DNA of 38,925 nt from a bacterium. Lineage in GTDB: Bacteria; Patescibacteriota; Microgenomatia; Levybacterales; UBA12049. This document shows positions 7,818 through 27,943 of this stretch, piece by piece. The stretch covers positions 1 to 38,925 of the forward strand of contig JAKALN010000004.1 in NCBI GenBank assembly GCA_021824155.1, written 5' to 3'. The position numbers were made by a program, and so were the translations under genes. The notes below the pieces were generated by a model that did no database searches, was not told the DNA's origin, and worked only from the letters and a program-made list of their open reading frames with translations. The stretch's first letter is position 1. Each line of letters starts with the position of its first letter.

Positions 7818-7824
7818 AACCATT

Positions 7825-7887
7825 AGTATATCAAATTTACGCCTATTCACAAACATATAGCCTTGCCGCAGGCAGGTGTGCTATACT
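7825..7887. promoter_or_regulatory. Divergent extended -10 promoters (PBP minus, tyrS plus) with a small palindrome between them
   Basis: TATACT on minus at 7825-7830, TGcTATACT on plus at 7879-7887; tgcc-GCA-ggca hairpin at 7864-7874. Confidence 0.7.
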
Positions 7888-13072: not shown

Positions 13073-13762
13073 ATGAAGATTTCCATTCTTACACTTTTCC
13101 CCGAAATGTTTAAGGGCCCATTTGACCACTCCATTATAAATAGGGCAAAAGAAAATAAAATTGCCGAAATAAATTTTATAAATTTTAGGGACTTTGGAAT
13201 AGGCAGGCATAAGCTGGTTGACGACACCCCCTACGGCGGGGGAAAAGGAATGGTACTAAGGGTTGACGTTTTGGAAGAGGCAATTGAAAAAACCAGAGAC
13301 AAAAGACTTAAAAAAAACGGGGAAAAAGTAATACTTCTTGGAGCGCACGGTAAAACATTTAATCAAAAAAAGGCCAGAGAATTTTCAAAATTGAAACACC
13401 TGATAATTATCTGCGGACATTACGAAGGTTTTGACGAAAGGATAAAATCTTTTATAGACGAAGAAGTATCCATCGGCGATTTTATTCTAACCGGAGGAGA
13501 AATACCCGCTATGCTTATAACCGACAGCATCATAAGGCTTATAAAAGGCGCTATAAGCCAAGATTCTGCCAAATTCGAATCTTTCTCCCCATACCTTGAA
13601 TATCCCCAGTACACAAAGCCCCAGGAATATAAAAATTTGAAAGTTCCCGAAATTCTCCTTTCGGGAAACCATAAAAAAATAGACGAGTGGAGAAAAGAAG
13701 AATCATTGAAAATAACTAAAAAATTAAGGCCCGACCTTATTGAAAACCGCCGGAAGCGCTAG
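13073..13762 (+). CDS. trmD: tRNA (guanine37-N1)-methyltransferase
   Basis: ILTLFPEMF, VDDTPYGGG.GMV, CGHYEGFDER, SIGDFILTGGEIPA, LEYPQYT.P, VPEILLSGNH. Confidence 0.98.
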   Translation: MKISILTLFPEMFKGPFDHSIINRAKENKIAEINFINFRDFGIGRHKLVDDTPYGGGKGMVLRVDVLEEAIEKTRDKRLKKNGEKVILLGAHGKTFNQKKAREFSKLKHLIIICGHYEGFDERIKSFIDEEVSIGDFILTGGEIPAMLITDSIIRLIKGAISQDSAKFESFSPYLEYPQYTKPQEYKNLKVPEILLSGNHKKIDEWRKEESLKITKKLRPDLIENRRKR

Positions 13763-14507
13763 AAGTAGCGGCAGGAACCTGCGGCTGCGGAGCCGGAGTG
13801 GAAACCGGAGCTGCGGGAGCTATTGGAGCTTGGGCATTTCCTCCGGCATTATTCCACGAAGAAAGATTTGTAATCGTAGCAAGACCCTGGGGGGAAACTA
13901 TTGTTACGGGAACATTGTCATTAAAACCAAGCGGAGGAAAAGGCCTAAAATAGAAATAGGCCGTAACTTCGGACGTAGCACTGCTTACCCTAACACTTGT
14001 AACCTCCGATAAGGGAGCAGTCTTATAAAGCTCTGTTATAAATCCTGTTACACCGTTAATTCCTCCGTTTATCGTTAAAACAAGCTTAAGATAAGGGAAA
14101 GAAACCGCTCCCGGCTCTTGAGGCTTGGTAATATCTCCTACCTGAAACTGATAATCTCCTAAAGATACTCCGGACCTGTTTGCGGCAATAGAAACGGCAG
14201 TCAGTATCCCTGCAAAATCTTTTCCGGGAGGAAGAGCGGTGGAAACAATCTGAAGCTGTGTATTTAGCTGAGTTTCGTCAAGGTTTGATAATAAATTCAG
14301 GTTATTCCTTAAAATTGCAAGCTTATTTGCTTCAACCTTTGCCTGCTGCTGTGCACTTAGCAAATTTTGGAACTGGGGAATAATCACAAAAATAAATAAG
14401 AAAGCACAAACCGCGATTACTCCGGCCGGCAGCAAATACTGCTTATACTTTACGTATAAGAATTTCATCATTGCCGAATCTATGTTAACTTTTTTATTCG
14501 TGTTCAT
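13737..14507 (-). CDS. pilO: Type IV pilus assembly protein, PilO-like
   Basis: N-terminal TM, coiled coil, ALP motif, ferredoxin-like region, Pro/Ala tail; last gene of pilM-N-O. Confidence 0.75.
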   Translation of the reverse strand: MNTNKKVNIDSAMMKFLYVKYKQYLLPAGVIAVCAFLFIFVIIPQFQNLLSAQQQAKVEANKLAILRNNLNLLSNLDETQLNTQLQIVSTALPPGKDFAGILTAVSIAANRSGVSLGDYQFQVGDITKPQEPGAVSFPYLKLVLTINGGINGVTGFITELYKTAPLSEVTSVRVSSATSEVTAYFYFRPFPPLGFNDNVPVTIVSPQGLATITNLSSWNNAGGNAQAPIAPAAPVSTPAPQPQVPAATSSASGGFQ

Positions 14508-15040
14508 AATAATGTTGCGCTTAATGACAAAGAATAACTGCCGCTTTTTTCGTTAACGGTTAAACTTTCTATAAAAATTTTACTTACTACTTTTTGCTTT
14601 TGCGAAAGGGATATAACGTTATTAAGAAAAGTATCAATCGACTGAAGAGAATTTGAACTAACTATCAAAACCACATTATCTTTATTTATTTCAAGATCCG
14701 TAGTACTTACCCCCGCGGGCATTTGCTGCCTTATTGTAGCAATTGCATTTGTATAATTTTTCCTTTTTTGAAGAATATTTGTAATATCCGTTAATCTATT
14801 GTTAATAATGGCAAGTTCCGCAGATTTTTTATGGAGAAAGGAAATACTGTTAAGCGTTGAATCCTGGTCTTTCTTAATAGAAGAAAGTGAAAGGGAGCTA
14901 TAAAGAATAAAAATAAGAATCGAAGACAACGCAACAACCGTAAGGGAGACTACCGCAGTTACCCTTATCATTTTCAGTCTCTTTTTTTCATTTAAAGACG
15001 TTGATTCCTGACTTGATACAAGATTTATGTCATTATTCAT
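14504..15040 (-). CDS. pilN: Type IV pilus assembly protein, PilN-like
   Basis: INL motif at N-terminus (MNNDINLV), TM, coiled coil, MPAGV; follows pilM. Confidence 0.78.
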   Translation of the reverse strand: MNNDINLVSSQESTSLNEKKRLKMIRVTAVVSLTVVALSSILIFILYSSLSLSSIKKDQDSTLNSISFLHKKSAELAIINNRLTDITNILQKRKNYTNAIATIRQQMPAGVSTTDLEINKDNVVLIVSSNSLQSIDTFLNNVISLSQKQKVVSKIFIESLTVNEKSGSYSLSLSATLL

Positions 15041-16067
15041 AATCTCTCATTGCCAAACCTACCGCTATTGTATAATCGGACGCGTTGTCTAAAACTTCTT
15101 TAGGAATAGTTTGCGAGGCAAGCACTTTCCAGGGGTTTGCAATTGCAGTTTCTATCCCCGCATTATTTGCAAAATAAATATCAATCCCCGGAAGCTTAGC
15201 TGTCCCTCCGGACAAAAGGATCTGCCTGACAGGGCCTTCGTCTTTATATTTTTGTGCATAAAAAGCCAGAGATTTCTTAGCTTCGATTAAAATTGAATTG
15301 AGTATTGGTTCTGTTGCCTGGCCTATTTTCCCTCCTAAGCTTTTTCCCGAAACACCGTAAACCTTTTTATATTCTTCCGCCTGCTGCGGGGTTAGGCCAA
15401 AATCGGTTGCTATTGCCCGGTTTACAGCGGCTCCTCCTACGGACATAGAATATGTAAATACCATTATCCCGTTTCTGACAATCGCAAACGAAGTGCTTAT
15501 TGCACCGATATTTATTATAAGAGTCGGGGGAAAATTTTCACCCAATATTAAAGGCCGGATAGTCGATAATATTTCCGTTTCCATGGAATTAATTGTAAAA
15601 CCGGCCATAGATATTATTTTCTGGTATTTTCTTATAAGCATTGTTGGGGCGCCGACCATTAAAATTTGCATCTTATCCTGCGCGGTAGGATGTTCGGGCC
15701 TTTTTAAAACATTCCAGGTAAGGGTAATATTTGTAAGCGGAACGGGAATGTATTGTTCTGCTTCCCAGTAGATAGCGGAAGCAAGCTCCCTGTCGGACAA
15801 AACAGGCATTTCCAAAACCTTTGTATAGACCTGGTTTTCTGCCAAAGCAACATTAACATACTTGGTATTAATATTTGCATCCGTTACCGCTTTTTTTATA
15901 GACTGGGCCATTTCTTCTTCGTCAAGGGGAGATTCCGACAGCATACCCTTAGGCGGAGCAGGCGCTATAATAGCCGATTTAAAGATATAGCTTCCTTTTT
16001 GCCCCTCCAAAAACACAATTTTTATCGTCGTGGCACCGATATCCAGGCCAAAGGGTTTTTTATTCAT
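15033..16067 (-). CDS. pilM: Type IV pilus assembly protein PilM
   Basis: FGLDIG...IK, WEAEQYIP, INIGA.ST, ILLSGGTAKLPG, YTIAVGLAMR (actin-like fold). Confidence 0.95.
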   Translation of the reverse strand: MNKKPFGLDIGATTIKIVFLEGQKGSYIFKSAIIAPAPPKGMLSESPLDEEEMAQSIKKAVTDANINTKYVNVALAENQVYTKVLEMPVLSDRELASAIYWEAEQYIPVPLTNITLTWNVLKRPEHPTAQDKMQILMVGAPTMLIRKYQKIISMAGFTINSMETEILSTIRPLILGENFPPTLIINIGAISTSFAIVRNGIMVFTYSMSVGGAAVNRAIATDFGLTPQQAEEYKKVYGVSGKSLGGKIGQATEPILNSILIEAKKSLAFYAQKYKDEGPVRQILLSGGTAKLPGIDIYFANNAGIETAIANPWKVLASQTIPKEVLDNASDYTIAVGLAMRDYE

Positions 16068-16073
16068 TTTTAA

Positions 16074-16886
16074 CTAGGGTGAAAAAAGATTGTAAAGAAA
16101 ATATTCGGAGGGCACTTCCGGATATCCCTGGAAGACATTAACCTTACGCGCCGTGGACCCGGCAGTTCCTACAGATGTTATTACCGACCCCTGGGAAGGA
16201 AAAGCGGCAGTTCCTATTAATGCCGCAGGCGTATTTGCATAAACAGGAATTATCCTTGCAATCAATCCGTTGGTTACGGGAATTGTCTGGCTTTGATAAT
16301 AAAATGTCTTTCCCGCCACTGTTGATTGCCCGGGACTAATGTACGTAAAATGATTTCCCGTACTTCTTGTCTGGCAGGGGTCAAACGCGTATCTTTGGAT
16401 AGACGGAGCTGTTCTGGTTCCGGAAATAAGCACAACTTCCAGCGCGGCATTGTTGCAGGCTCCCGAAGCATCTCCCCAATAAACGGTAAAAGTGCCATTC
16501 CACGGATTTTGGTAAAGCGAGGCAGAATCGCTTGAATAGGGAGTAAGCCACAAATCAATTCCGTCATCCTGTGAAATAGGGTTTCCTCCGTTAAGAATAA
16601 ATGTCGTTCCCGAGATTTGGGTTAAAGTGGTAGTAAAACCAGAGTCTTGGGAAAAATTGGAATTTGCAATGGATGCATTGGATTTTATTGCCTGTTCTAC
16701 TCCGGCTTCTGCAGCGGAGAGGGCTTTTTGTGAATTTACCTGGTCTGTGGAATTTTTAAAACTGGTAATACTTCTCGAAGCTATTGATAAACCTACGGTA
16801 AGTGCTATAACCATTACCAAAACTACAATTAGTAAAGATTGACCTTTTTGTGATTTTAGCTTGTTTAAAAAGCTATTTTTTATCAT
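16074..16886 (-). CDS. PilX-like minor pilin
   Basis: KG|QSLLIVVLVM without E5; ALSAAEAGVEQA PilX N-terminal motif. Confidence 0.82.
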   Translation of the reverse strand: MIKNSFLNKLKSQKGQSLLIVVLVMVIALTVGLSIASRSITSFKNSTDQVNSQKALSAAEAGVEQAIKSNASIANSNFSQDSGFTTTLTQISGTTFILNGGNPISQDDGIDLWLTPYSSDSASLYQNPWNGTFTVYWGDASGACNNAALEVVLISGTRTAPSIQRYAFDPCQTRSTGNHFTYISPGQSTVAGKTFYYQSQTIPVTNGLIARIIPVYANTPAALIGTAAFPSQGSVITSVGTAGSTARKVNVFQGYPEVPSEYFLYNLFSP

Positions 16887-16973: not shown

Positions 16974-17606
16974 TTAGAATCCGTTGTTTCTTATTGTAAC
17001 CGACGTTGAAAAAGGTATAGTCGCATTTTTTTCGCTGATAAAAGTGCTTGACGAGGATGAAATTTGGGATAAGGTAAAGTTTATGCCTATTGTAGGCGGT
17101 TCGGTAAGGGTGTGACCAGTACAGGTAAAATAACATTTTGTAGGATCAACGGAAACCGTTGAAGTGTCTATCAGGGAAGAAGAATTTGAAGCAATTGTGT
17201 ACGGGTTTCCCGAACATGAAAACACAGTTTGCCCTCCGTCAAATGAAGTTATTTTAACGTAATAAAACTGTTGCGGGGTAGGGGTAGGTAAGGGGGAAGG
17301 AGAACCCGATGGCAGGGGAGTAGGAGCAGGAACACAGACAGTGGTATAAGTAACACCGTCCGTACTTACACCGTTAAAAGCTTGGGCAAAGGTTAACATT
17401 TTTGAAATTTGGATAATCGCGTAGTTTCCATTTTCCCTTACGTTATTCAAAACAGTTGACTTATTCGAACCCCTTAACGAGGACACGATAATCCCCGTAA
17501 CGATCATGCCTACGACGACCATAATAACTATAACCGTTAAAAGCTCTACTAACGTATAGCCTTTTTGCGGATTCTTAATCCTTAATCCTAAATTCTTAAT
17601 TTTCAT
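16974..17606 (-). CDS. Minor prepilin (PilW/GspJ-like)
   Basis: KG|YTLVELLTVIVIM class III signal; VRENGNYA; PTP-rich loop. Confidence 0.87.
   Translation of the reverse strand: MKIKNLGLRIKNPQKGYTLVELLTVIVIMVVVGMIVTGIIVSSLRGSNKSTVLNNVRENGNYAIIQISKMLTFAQAFNGVSTDGVTYTTVCVPAPTPLPSGSPSPLPTPTPQQFYYVKITSFDGGQTVFSCSGNPYTIASNSSSLIDTSTVSVDPTKCYFTCTGHTLTEPPTIGINFTLSQISSSSSTFISEKNATIPFSTSVTIRNNGF
17573..17600 (-). repeat. Heptamer array in a pilin leader peptide
   Basis: Sense strand attaaga atttagg attaagg attaaga, encoding IKNLGLRIK. Confidence 0.8.
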
Positions 17607-18103
17607 TATGGTGTATTAAAAATAGTACCGTTAAGATTTGCAAAACAGGATTTTAAGCCGACATTATGGCAAAATTGGTTATTTTTATCCGTACATTTGC
17701 TGTCCGACCAGGAGACAGTTACGACCGTTAAAGCGCTTCCGCTGCAGGAAGGGGAATTCTGTGTTATATCTACTTCTCTTACAAATATCCCGTAATTTTG
17801 GCCGCAGGAATTAGAAACAGGGTCAACGGTTCTTAAAAGAGTCGTGCCCCCGTCCATACAATACCGCCCTGCAGTATAGGAGGAAAATAAATTCCAGTTG
17901 GATAAACTGGTCTGGCGCATTACCTCCATTGCTTCCTGGGCATACTGGCTGGCAATGTTTTGGTTTTTGGTGTATTGGACGTTGTTTAAGGCGGAAATAA
18001 CAGTTATCGTTATTGCAGATACGACCAAAACGGCCGCACCCAAGGCAACAAGTGCTTCAAGTAAACTTTGTCCCTTTTCTTTATTTTTATCTAATATTTC
18101 CAT
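17606..18103 (-). CDS. Minor prepilin (PilV/GspI-like)
   Basis: KG|QSLLEALVALG; A.QYAQEAME.MR; FVREVDI, VTVSW. Confidence 0.85.
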   Translation of the reverse strand: MEILDKNKEKGQSLLEALVALGAAVLVVSAITITVISALNNVQYTKNQNIASQYAQEAMEVMRQTSLSNWNLFSSYTAGRYCMDGGTTLLRTVDPVSNSCGQNYGIFVREVDITQNSPSCSGSALTVVTVSWSDSKCTDKNNQFCHNVGLKSCFANLNGTIFNTP

Positions 18104-18596
18104 TATTATCTATTGTTATTGTAAGTGTTTTACTATAGCCGGTAAGCACAATTTTTGTGTTTCCGCCCGTAGCTCCGCTTGAGATTACAGGGTAGAAAAT
18201 ACTGCTTGCTGTGGTCTGTGAACTGAAAGTAATATTAGCCGGCAGCGTTGTTGTCTGGATACTGTGGGTGCCAAGACAGATAACGCTTAGAGTATAGGAA
18301 TTATTAAGGGTATTTATATCTACCTGATAGCCGTTTAGCACCTGTCCCGAGCACACGGCAGGCACAACCTGCGAAAGAGCGCGTGACCTTGCCAGCGTTA
18401 TTGTATTTTCCAGATCAGACCCTGCCTGCACCAAAGTTTGATTCCTGCTGTAGCTAACAAACGATGCTATCCCCATTGTCGAAAGGATGGCGATAACCGT
18501 AAAAACTACAATTAATTCCAAAAGAGTGAAGCCATCGGAAGATTTACGTTTTATGATTGATAATTCATGAATTTTATTATGTAGGCAGTCAACCAT
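18087..18596 (-). CDS. Minor prepilin (FimT/GspH-like)
   Basis: G|FTLLELIVV; L...ITLARSRALS; C-terminal TITIDNNGNI. Confidence 0.85.
   Translation of the reverse strand: MVDCLHNKIHELSIIKRKSSDGFTLLELIVVFTVIAILSTMGIASFVSYSRNQTLVQAGSDLENTITLARSRALSQVVPAVCSGQVLNGYQVDINTLNNSYTLSVICLGTHSIQTTTLPANITFSSQTTASSIFYPVISSGATGGNTKIVLTGYSKTLTITIDNNGNIR
18541..18575 (-). repeat. Degenerate heptamer array in a pilin leader peptide
   Basis: Plus strand gatttac gttttat gattgat aattcat gaatttt, same flavour as 3361-3395. Confidence 0.6.
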
Positions 18597-18609: not shown

Positions 18610-19062
18610 TTAAGGGTTTTTTACCGTGTAAGACCAGTTTGTGGTTCCGGTGCATGGGGCTATGTTTGAAGTATCTTTTTGGTTATCGTTAAGGTTTTCA
18701 AGACAGGCTATTATTGAATAGGTTGTGCCGTCCGAAGAAAATGTGTAACTTCCGCCCAAGGGGTCGCACGGGATTGTCTGCATATACGTTGTGCCGTTTA
18801 AGGCCAAGGATGTCGTATTGCAAGCGGGAAGGGAAGTAGGATAACTTCCCTGGTCGGACCTGTAAAGCTCCATTGCCGACTGAATCTGGCGTAAATCCGA
18901 TTTTCTCTGTGCGTCCCTTGCCCTTTGCCTTACGCCTACAAAATTGACCATAAGAAGCGTAGCCAAAACACCTATAATCGCAATTACAATTAAAAGTTCT
19001 ATTAAAGTAAAACCCTTACCCGAATTTTTAACTTTAAATTTTAAATTTTTAATTTGCTTCAT
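18610..19062 (-). CDS. Prepilin, GspG-like
   Basis: KG|FTLIELLIVIAIIGVLA; RARDAQRKSDLRQIQSAMELY..D.G.YP; IPCDP. Confidence 0.92.
   Translation of the reverse strand: MKQIKNLKFKVKNSGKGFTLIELLIVIAIIGVLATLLMVNFVGVRQRARDAQRKSDLRQIQSAMELYRSDQGSYPTSLPACNTTSLALNGTTYMQTIPCDPLGGSYTFSSDGTTYSIIACLENLNDNQKDTSNIAPCTGTTNWSYTVKNP
19023..19055 (-). repeat. Heptamer array in a pilin leader peptide
   Basis: Sense strand aattaaa aatttaa aatttaa agttaaa aatt, encoding IKNLKFKVKN. Confidence 0.7.
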
Positions 19063-19604
19063 GGTGTCACATTAGGACTTGTTACTGCAAAATTGCAGGG
19101 CCCGCCGCAGGAATTTGCAGTTATCCCGTTTGCTGCGATGCTCGGACACTCGTTGTTAACCAGATTCTTACAAATCTGCGGGTCGGACGTACCTCTATCA
19201 AGCGTAGCATAAAGATAATAAGATTGTCCAGTTGAATAGTAAACATAATTGTCGGAAGAAACAGGGTCTTTAGGAAGTAAATTCATATATGGCTGCCATT
19301 GGGTTCCCCAATCCGCAGTTGTCAAATCAAGCCTTACAATTCTGTAAAGAGGGGGGGTAACCGCAGAGTAAGACGGATATTTTCCGTTGTCCTGATAATA
19401 GGTTTCAAGGGCCCTTTGGATTTGGGCCAAATCCGATTTTCTTCTTGAATCGTTTGCTTTTTGAAACTGGGCAAAGGGATTAAGCGCAACTATAGATCCT
19501 ACAGCAAGAACAGAAAGAATCCCTATAACAACAATAAGCTCCACAAGCGTAAAACCTTTTTCTTTATTTGAAATTTGAAATTTGAAATTTGAAATTTTAT
19601 TCAT
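19059..19604 (-). CDS. Prepilin, GspG-like (start moved to ATG 19604, TAATG overlap with upstream stop)
   Basis: [17 protein letters not shown]|FTLVELIVVIGIL; KANDSRRKSDLAQIQRALETYYQDNGKYP; LPKDP. Confidence 0.9.
   Translation of the reverse strand: MNKISNFKFQISNKEKGFTLVELIVVIGILSVLAVGSIVALNPFAQFQKANDSRRKSDLAQIQRALETYYQDNGKYPSYSAVTPPLYRIVRLDLTTADWGTQWQPYMNLLPKDPVSSDNYVYYSTGQSYYLYATLDRGTSDPQICKNLVNNECPSIAANGITANSCGGPCNFAVTSPNVTP
19566..19593 (-). repeat. Perfect (ATTTGAA)x4 tandem repeat inside a pilin leader
   Basis: Four exact 7-nt units at 19566-19593. Confidence 0.92.
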
Positions 19605-20512
19605 TATTGTGTACATAAACTGCCGCTGCAGGTTGTTGTTCCGGGCCCAGAGTAACAAGTTAAAGTACCGCCATATATCGTACACTGGCTTTGAACTACA
19701 CTGTTACAGTGCCCGCTTGATACTGCATAATAATTAGGATTGCAGTTAAAAGGCGCAGGTGTGGGCGTAGGGGTAGGAGTCGGAGTCGGAACGGGCGTAG
19801 GAGTAGGGCTTGACGTAGGCGAGGGCGTAGGAGTAGGGCTTGACGTAGGCGAAGATGACGGAGTAGAAGAACCGGTAGGCAAAGGAGTAGAAGAACCGAT
19901 AACGGGGTTTGGTAGAGGATTTGCAGCTATATAAGAACAATTTACGTTTCCCGATACAACGCAATAGTTGTAGCCCAAAGCCTGGTAATTTGTAGGTAAG
20001 CAATTTGAAAGCTGGGACAAAGCGCAGGAAGTCTGGAGGCTTGCGGTAGAGGACATTTTTGCAAAAAGGACGTTCCACTGCGGACAGCTGCTGCCGTCTG
20101 TTTCATATAAATAAGAAACCGCCCCCGAAGCAGGGTAATCCGGGTCCTGCGGAACCGTCTGGAGATAAACAGAAGAACCTTTGGTAAACGAACCTCCCAT
20201 GGAAACAGAAGCCGGATAGCAGTTTACGTCGGAGAGGTAAGAATCCAAAGCACTTCTTATCTGCGTTAAATCATGCTGTCTTCTTGCGTCTTTTGCCTTA
20301 TCGAGCTGTTTTATGGGGTTTAAAGTGACTATAGCCATGGTAATAAGGGTAGAAAGAATTACTACAACCACAAGAAGTTCTACTAGAGTAAACCCAAAAA
20401 TACCATTATGCGGGTAACTATTAAATCCCCTAAAAAAAGGCTTATAATGCTTCCTGTTACTAAAAAGGGTCCAAAAGGAATTGTATCTTTTATGGATGCC
20501 TTTTTTCTCCAT
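19604..20512 (-). CDS. Prepilin with Ser/Thr/Pro linker and C-terminal 6-Cys domain; start uncertain
   Basis: G|[13 protein letters not shown]; [21 protein letters not shown]; [10 protein letters not shown] linker; only in-frame ATG lies 130 nt inside pilD. Confidence 0.85.
19793..19852. repeat. 30-bp exact tandem duplication in the Pro/Thr/Ser linker
   Basis: gggcgtaggagtagggcttgacgtaggcga x2. Confidence 0.9.
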
Positions 20513-21198
20513 AGAATTAGTATGAGACCAATAAATGCTCCTGTCAAGAAAGCTAAATATAAAGAAATGATTATTTTAGGAAAGCCCAAAACCAACCCCA
20601 AAAGAAAAGCAAGTTTTACGTCTCCGAAGCCCATTCCTTTTCCTCCTGTAAAAAGAAACAGAATAAAGAAAAATAAAAATGAGCCGGCAGCGGAAATTAA
20701 ATTCAAAATAAAAAACTGAGGATTAATGGCAAGGTATATAAAACTTATAAGAATTGCGGGAAGAACTATCTTATCGGATATTATCCCGTATTTTAAATCT
20801 TCCAAAAAAACAATTATAAAAGACCCTGTAATAAATAAATAATAGAGCAACGATATAATCTTAAGGTAAGGAGGATTTAAAAAAGACGTCTGAATCCCCG
20901 GATAAAAAATAAATATAAAAACCGCGGAAAATAAAATTCCGGTGATAATCTCCGACAAGGGATAATAATAGTTTATTCTTTTATGGCAGTACCTGCATTT
21001 TCCCCGCAGTATTAAAAAAGATAGAAGGGGAACAAGGTCTTCCCATTCCAGGTTTTTTTTGCAGAATTCACAATGCGACCTTCCTTTAACTATAGCTTCG
21101 CCGCTTTTCAGCCTGTCAGCTACAACATTAAAAAACGATCCGAAGAAAGTACCTATAAAAAACAGGAAAAGTACCGAAAGGTAGATTAAATTACTCAT
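20383..21198 (-). CDS. pilD: Prepilin peptidase / N-methyltransferase (A24)
   Basis: [16 protein letters not shown]...L...[33 protein letters not shown]. Confidence 0.96.
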
Positions 21199-23201
21199 CC
21201 TTCTATATTCTTAATCGTCTTTGTTAAATCGTCAAGAAAATTAGATTTAAAAACTTTATTGTATTCATTTATGATAGTTTTTGCTTTTTTTTCATTCTTA
21301 AAACAGCTGATATAATTATAATACTGGAAAAAATAGGGGACCGGATTATATCTGTCCAGCTCTATGGCGGCATTCAGGTTCATCTGAGCCAACCCGCAAT
21401 TATTCTCTTTTAGATAGTAATTTCCTATCGACTGAAAGGCTGCCGGATTACTGCCGTCCGCTTCCAGCGCTTTTTGGTAATATTCCGAAGCGGATACTTT
21501 GTCGCCATAGTGGTTAAGAAAATAATTCCCTGTTCTTACCAATGCATTAGAGTAAAACAGGGGAATGTCCGCAATCGTTAAGTTACCCATTACCAAAGTA
21601 TCCGTTTTGGGAATATGAAAACTTTTCCATAATTTCCCCATTTGTTTTTTATACTCGGCGTTTGAGGGAAGGTCTCCTATAAAAAGCTTATTTGACAGCC
21701 CGTAAGGAACCCAATTTAACTGTTTTCCTTTTGTAGGTTCGATATCCGCTATGGAGAAAACCGGTGTTGTTTTTGCTATTTCCAAAGTAACATTAACGTT
21801 GGAATTTATTTTATTTTTCTCATTGGGATATTTTTTTAAGTAACTTTCCTGTTTGTCTTTGAAATATTTATTTTCCGTTACTCCGTTTATGTTTACCACC
21901 TGCACGTCAGGCCTGAAATTTTTACCGAAATGGACATACCACGTATTAAATAAAACAGTGTCTCCATTTAAAAATATCATAGAATTTTTCGGAAGGGGGC
22001 TAAGCAAATCGTAAGCTACATCATCTCCCGCTGTTAAACCGCTTAAATCCGTTTTTACGTAATTAAACCTGAAAAGCATCAGGGGAATTAAAATAAAAAC
22101 ACAGATTATAAGTGATGACAATATCTTTTTGGACAAAAATTTATCTAAAATAGTTTTTAAAAGTAGGAGTCCAAACGGAAAAAGCATTAAATAAACGATA
22201 AAGGAGAGAGTAATAAACCTTTCATAAACCCCTAAATTAAATGAATTTACAAACGGAAAACCGGAATAATAAACAAAAAACGGGCCCGATAATATAAAAG
22301 CCAAAAAAAGGGACAGGAGGAGTTTCCTATTATTTTTAAGAAGATGAATAAGTCCCAGGAAGATAACAAATGATGCCGGAATAGTTGCCTGGGTAATTAT
22401 ATTAAAAAAATAAATTTTAACGTCTATAATTCTTTGCTCAACTGAAGAACTTGCAAACGAGCCGATACTGAATGTACCGTAATCTTTTCTTAACACCAGG
22501 TGTAAAAATGAATCTAAATTATGTACGTGGTCCCAATTTATCGGTGGGTTATGAAAAGATGCTATCGGGATATAAATATAAGGAATTAGTCCTAAAGCTC
22601 CAAACAGAAAACTCAAGACGATATTTTTGGGCTTTTTGAAATCTTTTATAAGCCGGGGAAAAACCAGAACCAAAAGCGAAGGGAATATAAGAATAATCGT
22701 TTGGTGGTTAGTTAAAGAAAGCCCTGCTATAAAGGCAAGCAAAAAAAGATATTTTATATTTTTGCTTGAGGAATATACAACCGCTGTTAAAAAAAGCAAA
22801 AGTGCAAAAAAATTATTCAGGGCAAATACTTCCCCTATTTCATTGTAAAACCAGAAATAGTATGTAAAAGCCAAAAGAAGGGCCGATATTACACTTATGA
22901 GCCTGCTCTTTGTAAATTTTAGGGATAGGTAATAAAAAATTAATACCCCAAACGCTCCGGAGAAAGCGGAAATTAAGCCTATCATAAAAGCAGGGGATAT
23001 AAAGTTTATCCTGGAAAGTAAAAATCCCAAAAAAGTAAAAAGAGGATAACCGGGAGCATGTGCGACACCCATTGTAGCCGCGGCATTTAGTAAATCTCCT
23101 ACATCTCCTCCATAAGTTGCCCTTGAAAGGTTGTGTATATAAATTGCCAGAACGCCGATAAAAATAGTCAGAGGCAGAAGATTCTTTCTAATAAAAACCA
23201 T
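21195..23201 (-). CDS. DUF2723 / TMEM260-like GT-C glycosyltransferase with C-terminal TPR-like helices
   Basis: GD.GDL..AA.TMGVAHAPGYPLFT, EVFALN, GLSLTNHQT, YIYIPI....PPINW, R.DYG; many TM helices; A..YYQKALE.D TPR-like segment. Confidence 0.85.
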   Translation of the reverse strand: MVFIRKNLLPLTIFIGVLAIYIHNLSRATYGGDVGDLLNAAATMGVAHAPGYPLFTFLGFLLSRINFISPAFMIGLISAFSGAFGVLIFYYLSLKFTKSRLISVISALLLAFTYYFWFYNEIGEVFALNNFFALLLFLTAVVYSSSKNIKYLFLLAFIAGLSLTNHQTIILIFPSLLVLVFPRLIKDFKKPKNIVLSFLFGALGLIPYIYIPIASFHNPPINWDHVHNLDSFLHLVLRKDYGTFSIGSFASSSVEQRIIDVKIYFFNIITQATIPASFVIFLGLIHLLKNNRKLLLSLFLAFILSGPFFVYYSGFPFVNSFNLGVYERFITLSFIVYLMLFPFGLLLLKTILDKFLSKKILSSLIICVFILIPLMLFRFNYVKTDLSGLTAGDDVAYDLLSPLPKNSMIFLNGDTVLFNTWYVHFGKNFRPDVQVVNINGVTENKYFKDKQESYLKKYPNEKNKINSNVNVTLEIAKTTPVFSIADIEPTKGKQLNWVPYGLSNKLFIGDLPSNAEYKKQMGKLWKSFHIPKTDTLVMGNLTIADIPLFYSNALVRTGNYFLNHYGDKVSASEYYQKALEADGSNPAAFQSIGNYYLKENNCGLAQMNLNAAIELDRYNPVPYFFQYYNYISCFKNEKKAKTIINEYNKVFKSNFLDDLTKTIKNIEG

Positions 23202-23209
23202 TGGAGTGA

Positions 23210-23779
23210 TTACTCAGAGCACCAATAGCATGTACCCGAAGTTGGATTTGGACACAGGGTTGTAGACAGTGCTGTAGCAAGGCTATTGTTTGTCGTATCG
23301 GATGCGTTCCTCTGAGACCTGGATTTAGGAGCATAACAGGCAGTCAAGTTTGTCGAAGTGCCTTTAACATATATCTGGTTAAGTATATTGGTAACCGATG
23401 TAAAGCTGGATTTAAGTTCTCCGTCGGTTATAAGAGCCTGGATACATCCGTTAGCCCCGAGAAGGTTGCTTAAATTTTCGCCTCCCGCGGTAACTGTTGC
23501 GGCAGATAGCACACAACTTGTTGCACTTGCATTCGCAGTATCATTCCAAGGCATTGCACTGTGAGTTGTATAATACCTTACATTTGCGTCTATATATTCA
23601 ATTAAAGTATTTTTGGTATTTGCATCCTGGGCTTTATTCAGCTGTTCGAAAGGATCGATGGTTGCGATTAACGCTGCTGCCAAAACTCCTAAAATTCCGA
23701 TGACGACCAAAAGTTCGATAAGGGTAAATCCTGAGGATTTTTTGAATAATTTCTTTAGCGCTTCAATGAGCTTTTTCAT
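23210..23779 (-). CDS. pilA: Probable major type IV pilin (start moved to ATG 23779)
   Basis: MKKLIEALKKLFKKSSG|FTLIELLVVIGILGVLAA, IDPFEQLNKAQD; has its own TTGACA promoter; Ser/Thr/Ala-rich with Cys pairs. Confidence 0.8.
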   Translation of the reverse strand: MKKLIEALKKLFKKSSGFTLIELLVVIGILGVLAAALIATIDPFEQLNKAQDANTKNTLIEYIDANVRYYTTHSAMPWNDTANASATSCVLSAATVTAGGENLSNLLGANGCIQALITDGELKSSFTSVTNILNQIYVKGTSTNLTACYAPKSRSQRNASDTTNNSLATALSTTLCPNPTSGTCYWCSE

Positions 23780-23790
23780 TGTATATATCA

Positions 23791-23820
23791 ATATTAAACA
23801 TATACCAAATACCTTGTCAA
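23791..23820 (-). promoter_or_regulatory. Sigma70-type promoter upstream of the pilin gene
   Basis: TTGACA (23820-23815) then 18 nt to TAATAT on the minus strand. Confidence 0.6.
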
Positions 23821-23834
23821 TAGGCATTTTAGCC

Positions 23835-25040
23835 TTATTGTATGCTCGATATTAAACTGTAAATAGGCGTTATAACAGATATAATTAAAAACGCTACGCC
23901 GACACCCAAAACTACCATAATAAAAGGTTCCATAGCTGTTGTAAGGGCCTTAACCGTTCCATCTACTTCTCTTTCAAAATATTCCGACGCCCTTGTCAGT
24001 GAATCGTCAACTTTTCCCGTTTGCTCTCCTACTTTTACCAGCTGTATAAGAATCGGAGGAAACAGGGGATAAACAGACATCGCATCTCCTATGGTTACAC
24101 CTTTTTCAACCTGTTTGGAAACATCTTTAATGGCGTTTCTGTAATGCACATTATTAGCCGTATCTGCGGTCTCTATAAGTGCATCAACAACCAGAGTCCC
24201 AGTACCAACTAAAAGTCCGAAAGTCCTTGCGAATTCGGCAAGTATTGTCTGCTGTATCAGTTTACCGAAAATCGGAAGCTTTAACATTATACTGTCTATA
24301 ATAAGCTCGCCCTCTACGGTTTTCTTCCAGCGCCTGAAAAAGTAAAATCCGCCCACAACGGCCAATATTACAATAAACCAGAAGGAACTTATAAAATTAG
24401 AAATTCCAATTACTATTTGAGTAGGAAGAGGAAGCGGAACGTTAAGGTTTTGGTATAAAAGAGTAAGCTGCGGTATTACGAAAATCATCATAATAAACAT
24501 AACTACAACCATCAAAATAATAACTATTACCGGATACATCAGGGCAGACCTTATAGTACCCCTTAGTTTTGTCTGTTTTTCCAGGTTGTCCGCAAGCCTC
24601 AAAAGCACTTTATCTAAAAGTCCGGAGGCTTCTCCCGCCTTTATTAAAGAAATATAAATAGGGGAAAATACATTTGGATATTTTGATATGGAAGAAGAAA
24701 GTGTTTTCCCCTCTTCAACGTCATTGATAATACTGTTTACTATTTCCACCATTGCAGGATTTTGCACCTGGTCTTTTAAAATTCCCAAGGCCTTCATAAG
24801 GGTTAATCCAGAAGCAAGCATCGAGGAAAGCTGTCTTGTAAAAAGAACCAAATCCGAGCTTTTTACCCTTTTAAGCATCGGAAAAGCTCTGGCAATAGGA
24901 TTATCCTCTTCCTTGATTATGTGGATAGGGGTTAGTTCTTTGCTTCTTAAATACTGGGCCGCCTCGTTTATGTCACCGGCATCAATTACTCCCTGTTCCA
25001 GTTTTCCGTCTTTTGTCGCAGCTTTATAATGAAGTTTCAT
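23835..25040 (-). CDS. pilC: Type IV pilus platform protein PilC (GspF family)
   Basis: FTRQLSSML.SGL, VEEGK.LS, GEASGLLD, SALMYP, VGEQTG.VD, AMEP; three TMs. Confidence 0.96.
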   Translation of the reverse strand: MKLHYKAATKDGKLEQGVIDAGDINEAAQYLRSKELTPIHIIKEEDNPIARAFPMLKRVKSSDLVLFTRQLSSMLASGLTLMKALGILKDQVQNPAMVEIVNSIINDVEEGKTLSSSISKYPNVFSPIYISLIKAGEASGLLDKVLLRLADNLEKQTKLRGTIRSALMYPVIVIILMVVVMFIMMIFVIPQLTLLYQNLNVPLPLPTQIVIGISNFISSFWFIVILAVVGGFYFFRRWKKTVEGELIIDSIMLKLPIFGKLIQQTILAEFARTFGLLVGTGTLVVDALIETADTANNVHYRNAIKDVSKQVEKGVTIGDAMSVYPLFPPILIQLVKVGEQTGKVDDSLTRASEYFEREVDGTVKALTTAMEPFIMVVLGVGVAFLIISVITPIYSLISSIQ

Positions 25041-25043
25041 AAA

Positions 25044-26111
25044 TTATCCTACAAGTCTAAGAAGATCATCGGGACGCAAAGCGTAACTCTTAGCCATCTC
25101 AAGACTTATGTTCCCCGACAAAACAAGAGACGCAAGAGAAGATTCAAGGGTTATCATTCCGCTGTCCTGGGAAGTTTGTATAATAGAATCAATAAGATGT
25201 GTTTTTCCCTCCCTTATTGTACTCGCGATTGCGGAAGTGCCCATTAAAACTTCTACCGCAGGCATTCTTCCCCCGTTAATTTCGGGCAGAAGCCTTTGGG
25301 AAACAACCCCTTTAAGCGTGGAGGCAAGCTGGACCCTTATTTGGCTTTGCTGGCTGGGAGGAAATGAATCTATAATCCTGTCTATTGTCTGGGCCGCGGA
25401 ATTTGTATGAAGGGTGGAAAAAACCAAATGGCCGGTTTCGGCAATGGTAATTGCGGCGCTTATGGTTTCGGGGTCCCTCATTTCTCCGACCAGTACTACA
25501 TCGGGGTCCTCCCGCAGGGCCGACCTTAAAGCCATCGACCATGAATGGCTGTCTATGTCCATTTCCCTTTGGGAAATAATACTTTTTCCCGCCGGATATA
25601 CGTATTCAATAGGGTCTTCTATTGTCAATATATGCGTGGCCCGTTTTAAATTTATTTCATTTATTATCGAGGCAATTGTTGTTGATTTCCCGTGGCCGGT
25701 TGGGCCGGTAACCAATACAAAACCCTGTTTCATGTCCGCAAAATTATGAAGGACTTTGGGAAGATTAAGCTCTTCAAGAGTGCGGATGTTGGGCAGTAAA
25801 AACCTGAAAGCAGCGCTTAAAAAACCTCTCTGGTAATAAATGTTTGCCCTAAACCTTCCTAAATTTCCGTAATCTCCGCCTCCAAACCCGAATGAAAAAT
25901 CCAATTCCTTATTGTTTATTACGTATTCTTTTTGCTGCGGGGTAAGAAGGGAAAATACAAGATTTTCAACCATTTCATGGGACAGGGCGGAATAACTTGT
26001 AAGATATCTAAGAGACCCGTCAATCCTAATAACGGGAGGGATTCCCGCCAAAAGATGTAAATCCGAAGCGTTGTTTTTTACAGTTAAATTTAACAGTTCA
26101 TGTATATCCAT
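25044..26111 (-). CDS. pilT: Type IV pilus retraction ATPase PilT (ATG 26111; TTG 26117 also possible)
   Basis: ASDLHL, GPTGHGKSTT, TIEDPIEY, ALRSALREDPDVVLVGEMRD, AETGHLVFSTLHT, IREGK. Confidence 0.96.
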   Translation of the reverse strand: MDIHELLNLTVKNNASDLHLLAGIPPVIRIDGSLRYLTSYSALSHEMVENLVFSLLTPQQKEYVINNKELDFSFGFGGGDYGNLGRFRANIYYQRGFLSAAFRFLLPNIRTLEELNLPKVLHNFADMKQGFVLVTGPTGHGKSTTIASIINEINLKRATHILTIEDPIEYVYPAGKSIISQREMDIDSHSWSMALRSALREDPDVVLVGEMRDPETISAAITIAETGHLVFSTLHTNSAAQTIDRIIDSFPPSQQSQIRVQLASTLKGVVSQRLLPEINGGRMPAVEVLMGTSAIASTIREGKTHLIDSIIQTSQDSGMITLESSLASLVLSGNISLEMAKSYALRPDDLLRLVG

Positions 26112-26210
26112 ATCCAAAAAATTTCTAATTTCTAATTTCTAATTTCTAATTTTATTTTAATACCTATATCCATATTAGAACATTAGTGCAATTAGAGCAA
26201 TTAGATTAAT
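26103..26210. repeat. (TTTCTAA)x4 array between 11-bp direct repeats, with an opposing ATTAG 8-9-mer arm
   Basis: tatatccatat at 26103-26113 and 26165-26175; tttctaa x4 at 26122-26149; attagaac attagtgca attagagca attagatta from 26174. Confidence 0.88.
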
Positions 26211-26215
26211 TTTCA

Positions 26216-27943
26216 TTATTCCTGTGCAACCCTAAGCACTTCTTCTACCGTTGTTATTCCCTGTAAAACTTTTAAATATCCGTCCTGTTTCATCGTAATC
26301 ATTCCTTCGGAAGTAGCCTCTTTTTCGATTGTACTGCTGTCGGGATTTGATAATACCAGCTTTGTAATTTTATCCGTAATAGGAAGACACTCGAATATTC
26401 CTATTCTTCCCAAATATCCCGACAGACCGCACTGGTCACACCCTTTTCCTTTATATAGTTTGAGTTCGCCGTTTGCGGGCGGAAAAAGAGTCCCCAAGAC
26501 ATTTTTCATTTCGGTAACAATCTGGGGAAGGGGAGTATATGAAACTTTGCAGTTATTGCATATGGTCCTTACAATCCTTTGCCCTAAAATTGCAGTCATT
26601 GTTGAAGCAAGTAAAAATCTTTCCGCGCCCAAATCTACAAGACGGGGCAGAGCCCCTGCGGCATTGGAAGTATGAAGCGTGGAAAAAACCAAATGGCCGG
26701 TTAATGCGGCCTGGATCGCGAGCTCGGTTGTTTCGTTATCGCGGATTTCTCCAACCAGTATAATATTGGGATCCTGCCTTAAAAAGGCCCTAAGTCCGGT
26801 TGCAAAAGTAAGCCCGACCGCCGGGTTTATCTGCACCTGGTTTATTCCCGACATTTGGTACTCGACGGGGTCTTCCAGAGTCATAATATTTACCCTTGTA
26901 GTATTAAGCTTTTCCAAGACCGAATATAAGGTTGTAGTTTTACCCGAACCGGTAGGCCCGACTACTATAATAATACCGTGGGGTCTTAACATTGCCGTTT
27001 CCAGGTTTTTTAAGGAAGTGCCGGAAAGCCCCAGCTCCTGCAGGGTCGGAACCCCGCCGGATTTCCGAAGCAGCCTCATAACAATTTTCTCCCCGTAAAC
27101 TGTGGGTAAGTCCGAAATACGAAGGTCAACCTCTTTATCCTCTACCCTAAAGTTAAAACGTCCGTCCTGGGGAGTCCTGTGTTCGTCTATTTTCATATCG
27201 GAAAGTATTTTAATCCTTGAAATTAAGGCTTCCTGCACGCTTTTAGGAAGGCTTAACCTGTCGTATAAAATTCCGTCAATCCTGTACCTTACCCTTACCC
27301 TGTCTTCCTGGGGTTCGATATGGACATCGGAAGACCTGCTGTTTACGGCATATTCCAGAATTGTCGAAACTATTTTGGCAACAGGCGCCTCTTTAATAAT
27401 CTGGGCTATATCTTTGCTGTCAACCGTTTTTGTTTTGTTGAATTCTTCCGTTTCTTTTACGGCCTGTCCTACTTCTCCGATTATTTCCTGCCTGTATTGT
27501 TCGGATATTGCCCTGCTCACTTCGCTCGGGGCGGCCGCAAAAGTTTTAATTGTAAGACCTGTTTTTTGCTGTATAAAAGAAAGGGCGTCAAGGTCAACGG
27601 GGTTACTCATTGCAACCGAAAGTAACTTCATTTTATCGTCGTACATAAAAGGAATTAAAGAAAACCTTTCGGCAACCGCCCTTGATATATACTCCAAAGC
27701 CTGCGGGGAAAAAGAGGTATCCTCAAGGGAAATATACGGAATATTCAAGAGCTTTGCCTTTGCCTCGGCAAGTTTGGCTTCGGGAATAATGTTAAGGGAC
27801 GTAATAAGAGAATCCTCCGAAATATTCTGGGTGGCACTTTTTACTTTTATGTCGTTGAATTGTTCCTGGGTAAGTAACTTCTCCGCGAGTAAAATATCGC
27901 TTAAAGTCTGATTCTTTATAGGAGTTTGAAAATCGCTGGGCAT
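26216..27943 (-). CDS. pilB: Type IV pilus extension ATPase PilB (GspE family)
   Basis: SDVHIEP, RYRIDG, PQDGR, GPTGSGKTTT, TLEDPVEY, RQDPNIILVGEIRD, TGHLVFSTLHT, CxxC...CxxC. Confidence 0.96.
   Translation of the reverse strand: MPSDFQTPIKNQTLSDILLAEKLLTQEQFNDIKVKSATQNISEDSLITSLNIIPEAKLAEAKAKLLNIPYISLEDTSFSPQALEYISRAVAERFSLIPFMYDDKMKLLSVAMSNPVDLDALSFIQQKTGLTIKTFAAAPSEVSRAISEQYRQEIIGEVGQAVKETEEFNKTKTVDSKDIAQIIKEAPVAKIVSTILEYAVNSRSSDVHIEPQEDRVRVRYRIDGILYDRLSLPKSVQEALISRIKILSDMKIDEHRTPQDGRFNFRVEDKEVDLRISDLPTVYGEKIVMRLLRKSGGVPTLQELGLSGTSLKNLETAMLRPHGIIIVVGPTGSGKTTTLYSVLEKLNTTRVNIMTLEDPVEYQMSGINQVQINPAVGLTFATGLRAFLRQDPNIILVGEIRDNETTELAIQAALTGHLVFSTLHTSNAAGALPRLVDLGAERFLLASTMTAILGQRIVRTICNNCKVSYTPLPQIVTEMKNVLGTLFPPANGELKLYKGKGCDQCGLSGYLGRIGIFECLPITDKITKLVLSNPDSSTIEKEATSEGMITMKQDGYLKVLQGITTVEEVLRVAQE

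Follow-up and report, generated by a model that had tools for sequence, protein, structure and literature searches.

A TMEM260-family glycosyltransferase encoded between the major pilin and the prepilin peptidase in a type IV pilus operon of Patescibacteriota

The human membrane protein TMEM260 was identified as a protein O-mannosyltransferase in 2023, in a paper whose accessible part mentions only 'distant homologs in bacteria'. A bacterial member of this family is the subject of the present work. It is encoded at positions 21195..23201 (minus strand) of a stretch of DNA of 38,925 nucleotides (nt), hereafter the window, which covers positions 1 to 38,925 of contig JAKALN010000004.1 (assembly GCA_021824155.1) from a bacterium of the phylum Patescibacteriota (Microgenomatia; Levybacterales; UBA12049). 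The gene lies in a type IV pilus operon, between the genes for the major pilin (pilA) and the prepilin peptidase (pilD).

The structure of human TMEM260 (PDB 9RQL, 9RQM and 9RQN) has been described in a cryo-EM preprint from 2026, the accessible part of which distinguishes a membrane module with the glycosyltransferase-C (GT-C) fold (residues 24-415), a Rossmann-like domain (416-564), and a tetratricopeptide repeat (TPR) domain (565-706). According to the same part of the preprint, mannose is contacted by D52, H67, Y267, and R355 and the phosphate by R264, while D441 acts as the catalytic base; mutants at these six positions are either inactive or left with about 20% of their activity. The window protein belongs to the same sequence family, shows the same build of GT-C, Rossmann-like, and TPR parts, and holds the six activity residues. 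In contrast to TMEM260, its host is bacterial, the lipid of its donor has to be a polyprenol of bacterial type instead of dolichol, its gene resides in a pilus operon, and neither the IPT acceptors of the human enzyme nor their sequon were found in its genome; it is, moreover, known here from its sequence.

Other systems resemble the locus in function or in gene order. PglL/TfpO (PilO) glycosylates pilins, and the accessible descriptions place tfpO after pilA as well; however, they assign it to another enzyme class, which moves preassembled undecaprenyl-diphosphate glycans. TfpW, from Pseudomonas strains with group IV pilins, is presented in the accessible part of a preprint as a GT-C protein of 646 amino acids that combines 11 transmembrane (TM) helices with a periplasmic TPR domain; its gene immediately follows pilA, and the protein is needed for the addition of D-arabinofuranose to pilin Ser/Thr residues. 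It shares with the window enzyme its condition of accessory GT-C gene directly after pilA and an extracytoplasmic TPR tail, but, as far as that text describes it, it uses decaprenyl-phosphate-arabinose and builds oligomers. The protein O-mannosyltransferases of the PMT/POMT (GT39) and TMTC types are also GT-C enzymes that use a lipid-phosphate-mannose donor and Ser/Thr acceptors, as is proposed below for the window enzyme. PMT enzymes differ in that the PMT_2 profile stays below its cut-off in the window protein, and no MIR domain was reported for it in the Pfam scan.

Family, fold and active-site residues

A sequence-only reading of this DNA had described the gene product as a polytopic membrane protein of the TMEM260/DUF2723 type with a TPR-like tail. 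The family assignment is borne out by the hidden Markov model search, in which the 668-residue protein matches PF11028 (TMEM260-like/DUF2723) over residues 33-183 with 87.8 bits (cut-off 24.2). The match to PMT_2 is sub-threshold (19.3 bits, cut-off 26.1), and NCBIfam returned no family for the protein. A protein search in which 8000 candidates were scored yielded 316 relatives at E <= 0.001, which, in those cases where a source gives them a name, are DUF2723 proteins of Levybacteria or Patescibacteria. When a profile built from the alignment of 21 family members (A1) was compared with the human TMEM260 chain 9rql_A by HMMER, the two matched with an E value of 2.2e-64 and 221 bits, from 14 to 452 of the profile and from 32 to 478 of the chain.

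The motif that had been read as GD.G.L..AA..GVAH.PGYPL falls in the part of the sequence that the family conserves best. It is present as GGDVGDLLNAAATMGVAHAPGYPLF, although three residues, and not two, separate AA from GVAH. Six of its residues (D33, D36, H48, G51, Y52, and P53) are invariant in the 21 sequences. In the HMMER alignment, the human residues D52, H67, R264, Y267, R355, and D441 correspond to D33, H48, R238, Y241, R328, and D414, respectively, all of them invariant in A1. In 79 full-length relatives, R238 and D414 are conserved in every sequence, D33, H48, and Y241 in 78, and R328 in 73, with Lys in a further five. The conservation of the six functional positions down to 28% identity argues for retained catalysis.

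An AlphaFold2 model built from A1 (predicted local distance difference test, pLDDT, 85.3; predicted TM-score 0.83) shows three parts in the same order as in TMEM260, as judged against the published description of the cryo-EM structure. The transmembrane GT-C module comprises approximately residues 1-390 (22032..23201), with stacked helices over residues 2-384, as expected for the polytopic protein first described, and holds the donor-site residues D33, H48, R238, Y241, and R328. It is followed by an extracytoplasmic alpha/beta (Rossmann-like) domain (approximately residues 391-540; 21582..22031) with five strands between residues 408 and 507, in which G413-D414 aligns with human G440-D441. The protein ends in a TPR tail (approximately residues 541-668; 21198..21581) formed by helical repeats at 545-667, and profile positions ~558-632 match consensus TPR proteins, in agreement with the tail originally noted. 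A Foldseek search of the model against the PDB returned 25 matches at E <= 0.001, all of them GT-C enzymes or complexes containing one, with a best TM-score of 0.46; they include PglB, ArnT, STT3, AglB, ALG12, ALG9, DPY19, Emb, Pmt4, and Pmt1-Pmt2. The gene at 21195..23201 belongs to the TMEM260 family and has retained the residues of the active site, and its product is very probably an active glycosyltransferase of this family.

The place of the gene between pilA and pilD

The gene is tightly packed between its neighbors. The TAA stop codon of the major pilin gene (23210..23827) is separated by 8 nt (TCACTCCA) from the ATG of 21195..23201, and the TGA of the latter overlaps the ATG of pilD (20383..21198) in the 4-nt sequence ATGA, exactly as had been read. 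The pilin is a PilA-like prepilin with an N_methyl motif at residues 29-53, and it belongs to a conserved family, of which 49 members, each the product of the gene immediately preceding that of the enzyme, were aligned.

To date, the conservation of this arrangement has been followed in a scan of species-representative genomes, which confirmed 524 relatives of the enzyme; the best 80 were taken, corresponding to 79 distinct loci, whose open reading frames were compared with the pilus proteins of the window. Linkage was scored when a gene with a prepilin cleavage motif ended between -150 and +300 nt from the start of the enzyme gene on the same strand, and loci were counted if they offered at least 700 nt of upstream flank (71 loci) or at least 4.5 kb of downstream flank (51 loci). 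A prepilin gene was found directly upstream of the enzyme in 52/71 loci, and a PilD homologue downstream in 40/51. Where both flanks could be read (50 loci), pilin and PilD were both present in 38 and both lacking in 11. Two loci scored as misses (L002 and L004) nevertheless have PilC and PilD adjoining the enzyme.

A rapid maximum-likelihood tree, computed for 74 full-length enzymes, shows the 26-row clade that includes the window protein (support 99) to be linked to pil genes throughout, together with 18 of the 20 rows of a distant Gottesman-type clade with 28-33% identity, the two exceptions having less than 500 nt of flank. In a sample of 301 genomes of the phylum, PF11028 scored above cut-off in 36. 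The order PilB-PilT-PilC-pilin-glycosyltransferase-PilD was found in four of five strong full-length matches from other classes of the phylum, and it was not kept around the five shorter, weaker PF11028 matches fetched from the same sample. Within the class, A1 matches 48 of 151 sampled genomes at E <= 1e-20. In at least 21 of the 30 other genomes with an enzyme match at E <= 1e-70, the pilin profile is matched immediately upstream in the same orientation; one genome marked as unpublished (G354) is counted in both tallies. Six of these upstream matches cover only the conserved N-terminus of the pilin, indicating that the neighboring pilin in those genomes is of a different globular family. In the five other genomes of the window's own family in this sample, A1 found no match at E <= 1e-20. 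Seven genomes without the enzyme were examined (six with a close pilin orthologue, plus one more), and in all of them the same operon is present with pilA abutting pilD, indicating that the enzyme gene is accessory and is inserted at one fixed place. The gene-neighborhood survey thus found the link to pil genes to be conserved in most, but not all, relatives.

Other membrane proteins share this slot. In 13 related loci, a polytopic protein of 382-399 amino acids is encoded between the TMEM260-like gene and pilD (e.g., L001:7979-9133, L003:7952-9127, and L028:8038-9201). Members of this protein family give weak matches to PMT_2 (9/13) and to the PIG-V mannosyltransferase (3/13) at E <= 0.1; a profile of the 13 proteins matched nothing in the PDB, and the protein is absent from the window. 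Loci of the Gottesman type hold in the pilA-pilD slot, on the opposite strand, a YfhO-like GT-C protein of 715-760 amino acids (L052:7874-10120, L065:7700-9886, and L061:9314-11458), with a YfhO match in the three scanned. L061 encodes a further membrane protein, of 439 amino acids, for which no Pfam match was obtained.

The presence of TfpW in an equivalent place has been examined in a Pseudomonas paraeruginosa genome reached through a scan with 16S primers, whose locus consists of pilA, an open reading frame (ORF) of 641 amino acids, an ORF of 245 amino acids, and a tRNA-Thr gene, next to pilBCD. The possibility that TfpW is a hidden member of the TMEM260 family was considered and rejected. 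The 641-residue ORF has no Pfam match at E <= 1, and A1 finds nothing at E <= 1 in the P. paraeruginosa genome. PF11028 was found in none of 120 TfpW homologues among the matches listed, and the proteins that the preprint names from Azotobacter and Acinetobacter are among these homologues. Profile alignment with hhalign gave a probability of 0.2% with the single sequence and 29% with the family profile (TM4-TM10), where one helix has E-R-F in common. In addition, the TPR helices of the TfpW model (pLDDT 90.7) follow straight on the membrane helices, no alpha/beta domain lying between them, and TfpW has a WDD motif where the window protein has GGD. The two enzymes are thus alike in genomic position and in general architecture, but they belong to different GT-C families, the window enzyme having an extra catalytic domain. 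As for PglL/TfpO, no Wzy_C-type domain was found in the window protein, for which Pfam reports only PF11028 and PMT_2 at E <= 0.01.

Donor, acceptor and alternative explanations

The account that we favor, with a confidence slightly better than even, is that this TMEM260-family GT-C enzyme is carried as a type IV pilus accessory gene and most likely modifies the major pilin, the sugar most likely being mannose. Taken separately, and provided that the enzyme is active, the modification of pilins is reasonably probable, with mannose as the likeliest sugar. In the mechanism proposed, the eleven-helix membrane module would bind, on the outward-facing side of the membrane, a polyprenyl-phosphate hexose, most likely mannose derived from GDP-mannose through a synthase encoded elsewhere in the genome (see below). 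The TPR tail and the Rossmann-like domain would hold an extended stretch of an exported, still membrane-anchored protein, and D414 would activate a Ser/Thr hydroxyl, which would accept a single sugar. The likeliest acceptor would be the major pilin encoded 8 nt upstream, and perhaps other pilins of the operon, before their entry into the fiber.

The genome (814 kb in 32 contigs, 99.5% complete) encodes a possible donor pathway. A polyprenyl-phosphate mannose synthase had been named as something to look for, and a candidate was found among the 15 GT2 matches above cut-off, at positions 19309-20442 of contig C7, where a GT2 domain is joined to a GtrA/DPMS_TM domain. Its best solved relative over its full length is the dolichol-phosphate mannose synthase (DPMS) of Pyrococcus furiosus (E 3.8e-35), with ArnC (1.5e-13) and GtrB (1.3e-9) far behind. 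This DPMS-like gene is part of an Arn-like cluster (C7:17700-24700, locus L097) that also encodes a UDP-glucose/GDP-mannose dehydrogenase, three short-chain dehydrogenase/reductase (SDR) enzymes, and a PMT_2 GT-C protein of 528 amino acids, the gene for which overlaps that of the synthase by 4 nt. One of the SDR enzymes is a GDP-mannose 4,6-dehydratase (Gmd; score 439.6 against an equivalog cut-off of 415), and the best match of a 361-residue protein on contig C31 is a mannose-1-phosphate guanylyltransferase (ManC-like). The genome therefore encodes both a route to GDP-mannose and a DPMS-like lipid-phosphate-sugar synthase.

Despite its small size, this 814-kb genome carries many membrane glycosyltransferases. 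Contig C24 encodes two fusions of an N-terminal GT2 domain with a PMT_2-type GT-C part, of 856 and 733 amino acids (C24:9603-12173 and C24:17217-19418, respectively). A second TMEM260-like gene begins at C32:1969-2755 (plus strand) and continues at C19:1-1437; its product matches PF11028 with 88.7 bits, is 24% identical to the window protein, and holds N in place of H48. The gene adjoins an ORF for a LysM/M23-like peptidase (named by eye) and lies away from pil genes. Given that identity and that location, the second gene is uninformative about the link to the pilus.

A number of observations weigh against the modification of the major pilin by mannose. The pilin has been proposed as acceptor on the grounds of gene position and precedent only, and no sequence feature of the pilins tracks with the presence of the enzyme when S/T content, invariant serine, and the linker rich in serine, threonine, and proline (S/T/P) are compared. 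Conservation is good among the 49 pilins adjoining the enzyme, and S169, in the motif C-x-x-P-x-S, is their sole invariant serine outside the leader region. This residue was dropped as candidate acceptor site because it is also found in 7/7 pilins of enzyme-free genomes, and the S/T content was discarded as a mark of the enzyme because it is alike with it (19.8%) and without it (14-22%). The acceptor class of the human enzyme was not found either: PF01833 (TIG/IPT) has no match in the genome, and the human sequon P-x5-P-x3-G-P-x2-[GA]-G-G-x2-[TS] has none, in full or in its core. Acceptors with this sequon characterize the human enzyme, not the family as a whole, and acceptor recognition by TMEM260 cannot be carried over to this bacterium. 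Regarding the donor, the DPMS-like synthase is encoded outside the pilus operon and beside a PMT_2 GT-C, so that it may mainly serve that enzyme, and the sugar that it transfers may or may not be mannose. The genomic link has its gaps as well, since 11/50 loci with both flanks have neither pilin nor PilD nearby. A Roizman-type clade of 15 rows (support 98), close relatives of the window protein, lies mostly away from pil genes (13/15 rows) and accounts for 13 of the 17 unlinked rows of the tree. Finally, the loci are the top matches of the query and, being kin to one another, are not independent, so that the counts describe a pattern and do not constitute a test.

The S/T/P-rich stretches to which attention had been drawn in the pilins, the PilO-position protein, and the penicillin-binding protein (PBP) do exist, although they lend no support to pilin glycosylation. 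In the best stretch of 15 residues, the S/T/P fraction reaches 15/15 in the pilin 19604..20512, 0.80 in the pilin 16974..17606, 0.73 in the class A PBP (5448..7856), and 0.60 in the PilO-position protein (13737..14507). Linkers of this kind were rejected as a mark of substrates, as they are neither pilus-specific (they occur in 11 proteins genome-wide, just one of them a pilin) nor conserved: the linker of the minor pilin 19604..20512 reaches at least 0.8 in only 3/23 homologues adjoining the enzyme, and it also occurs in one enzyme-free genome. A complex predicted for the enzyme and the mature pilin scored 0.00 in a run without controls, a value that speaks neither for nor against their contact. 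The dedicated pilin O-glycosylation initially proposed is upheld in part: the pilA-pilD position is conserved, while the acceptor follows from position only and pilins with and without the enzyme are alike.

Among the alternatives, the one that survives best, although unlikely, is that of a general protein O-glycosyltransferase acting on many exported proteins, whose place in the operon would serve only for co-expression and for which pilins would be at most a few of many substrates. The 11 proteins with S/T/P-rich linkers, the class A PBP included, would suit such an enzyme, as would the lack of a specific acceptor signature in the pilins and the clade of relatives located away from pil genes. 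Nevertheless, the occurrence of S/T/P linkers is not tied to that of the enzyme, 5/5 other genomes of the same family yielded no match to it, and the genome offers other GT-C candidates for a general role (the PMT_2 protein beside the DPMS-like synthase, the two GT2-PMT_2 fusions, and the second TMEM260-like paralogue). Moreover, the exact pilA-pilD slot is kept across classes and pilin families, which would be difficult to account for if this were a housekeeping enzyme.

It is improbable that the enzyme glycosylates a target tied to the pilus other than a pilin, such as a cell-wall or membrane glycopolymer (in the manner of ArnT) or a protein of the machinery. The GT-C class does include glycosyltransferases for lipids and polymers, with ArnT and Emb/Aft among the fold matches, and YfhO-like genes occupy the same slot in relatives; however, the Rossmann-like and TPR domains match those of TMEM260, where, in the accessible description, both grip the peptide acceptor, and D414, the counterpart of the base D441 that activates the protein hydroxyl in that description, is present in 79/79 relatives. 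A non-catalytic scaffold, that is, a TPR protein that aids pilus assembly after having lost its enzyme activity, is very improbable indeed, since, even though TPR proteins are often type IV pilus assembly factors, the six functionally tested positions are conserved and the gene is missing from the pilus operons of seven relatives, which indicates that the enzyme is no core part of assembly.

A broader version of the favored account, in which a pilus accessory enzyme modifies pilins, appears doubtful as a whole. It would have TMEM260-type enzymes begin as bacterial pilin-specific O-mannosyltransferases, with the metazoan enzyme derived from such an ancestor and the TPR 'fingers' gripping, ahead of assembly, the extended segment of a prepilin or pilin anchored in the membrane. 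The slot between pilA and pilD would be a swappable glycosylation islet that is empty, holds the TMEM260-like gene alone, or holds it plus a PIG-V-like or a YfhO-like gene, and that would vary the surface of the pilus as a defense against phages or as a means of recognizing hosts.

In Patescibacteria, attachment depends centrally on type IV pili, and the locus provides a candidate pilin-glycosylation enzyme for other lineages of this phylum. Its conserved place in the pilus operon supplies the first concrete, testable substrate hypothesis for bacterial TMEM260 homologues, which thereby gain a first functional context, in an enzyme family not linked to pili in the literature searched. The presence or absence of the enzyme between close relatives, together with other GT-C genes in the slot, brings to mind the Pseudomonas pilin accessory genes; there, glycosylation has been reported, in the accessible part of the source, to protect from pilus-specific phages. 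In Saccharibacteria, the accessible part of a paper on the pilus gives O-glycosylation sites of the pilin as software predictions only and names their confirmation as future work, and that of a paper on a different pilus from the candidate phyla radiation describes extra density on one serine. In the literature searched, DUF2723 was mentioned only in the 2023 TMEM260 paper, no text joined DUF2723 with pilins, and TMEM260 was not found together with pilus or Patescibacteria terms among the matches listed. The suggestion of a possibly undescribed pathway is consistent with this absence of a literature link to pilins; it is tempered by the precedent of TfpW, a GT-C protein with 11 TM helices and a TPR domain encoded after pilA, as the accessible part of its preprint describes it.

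Neighboring genes and further observations

The operon runs along the minus strand, on which all the features that follow are encoded, in the order PilB-PilT-PilC-prepilin-668-residue ORF-PilD, continued by seven pilin-like ORFs, PilM, and two final ORFs. Its first genes encode a PilB-type extension ATPase (26216..27943; PF00437 T2SSE and MshEN), a PilT-type retraction ATPase of 357 amino acids (25044..26117; PF00437 T2SSE), and the platform protein PilC (23835..25040; PF00482 T2SSF, 205.6 bits). PilD was recognized by PF06750 and PF01478. The pilin-like ORFs are located at 19604..20512, 19059..19685, 18610..19062, 18087..18596, 17606..18103, 16974..17606, and 16074..16886; five of the seven hold N_methyl and/or T2SSG matches, and neither was found by the Pfam scan in 17606..18103 and 16074..16886. 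PilM is encoded at 15033..16067 (PilM_2, 160 bits). The two ORFs at the PilN and PilO positions, within 13737..16067 (13737..14507 being that at the PilO position), have no Pfam match and are named by position only.

Two of the pilin ORFs are probably too long at their 5' ends. In the major pilin (23210..23827), a start at the internal Met17, near position 23779, would yield a normal 16-residue leader. In 19604..20512, the cleavage motif appears approximately 40 residues into the ORF, which overlaps pilD by 130 nt. Finally, the region 20300-24000 of the window is present in four public runs from one study (X1-X4) labeled as mine drainage metagenomes, which may be the source of the assembly.

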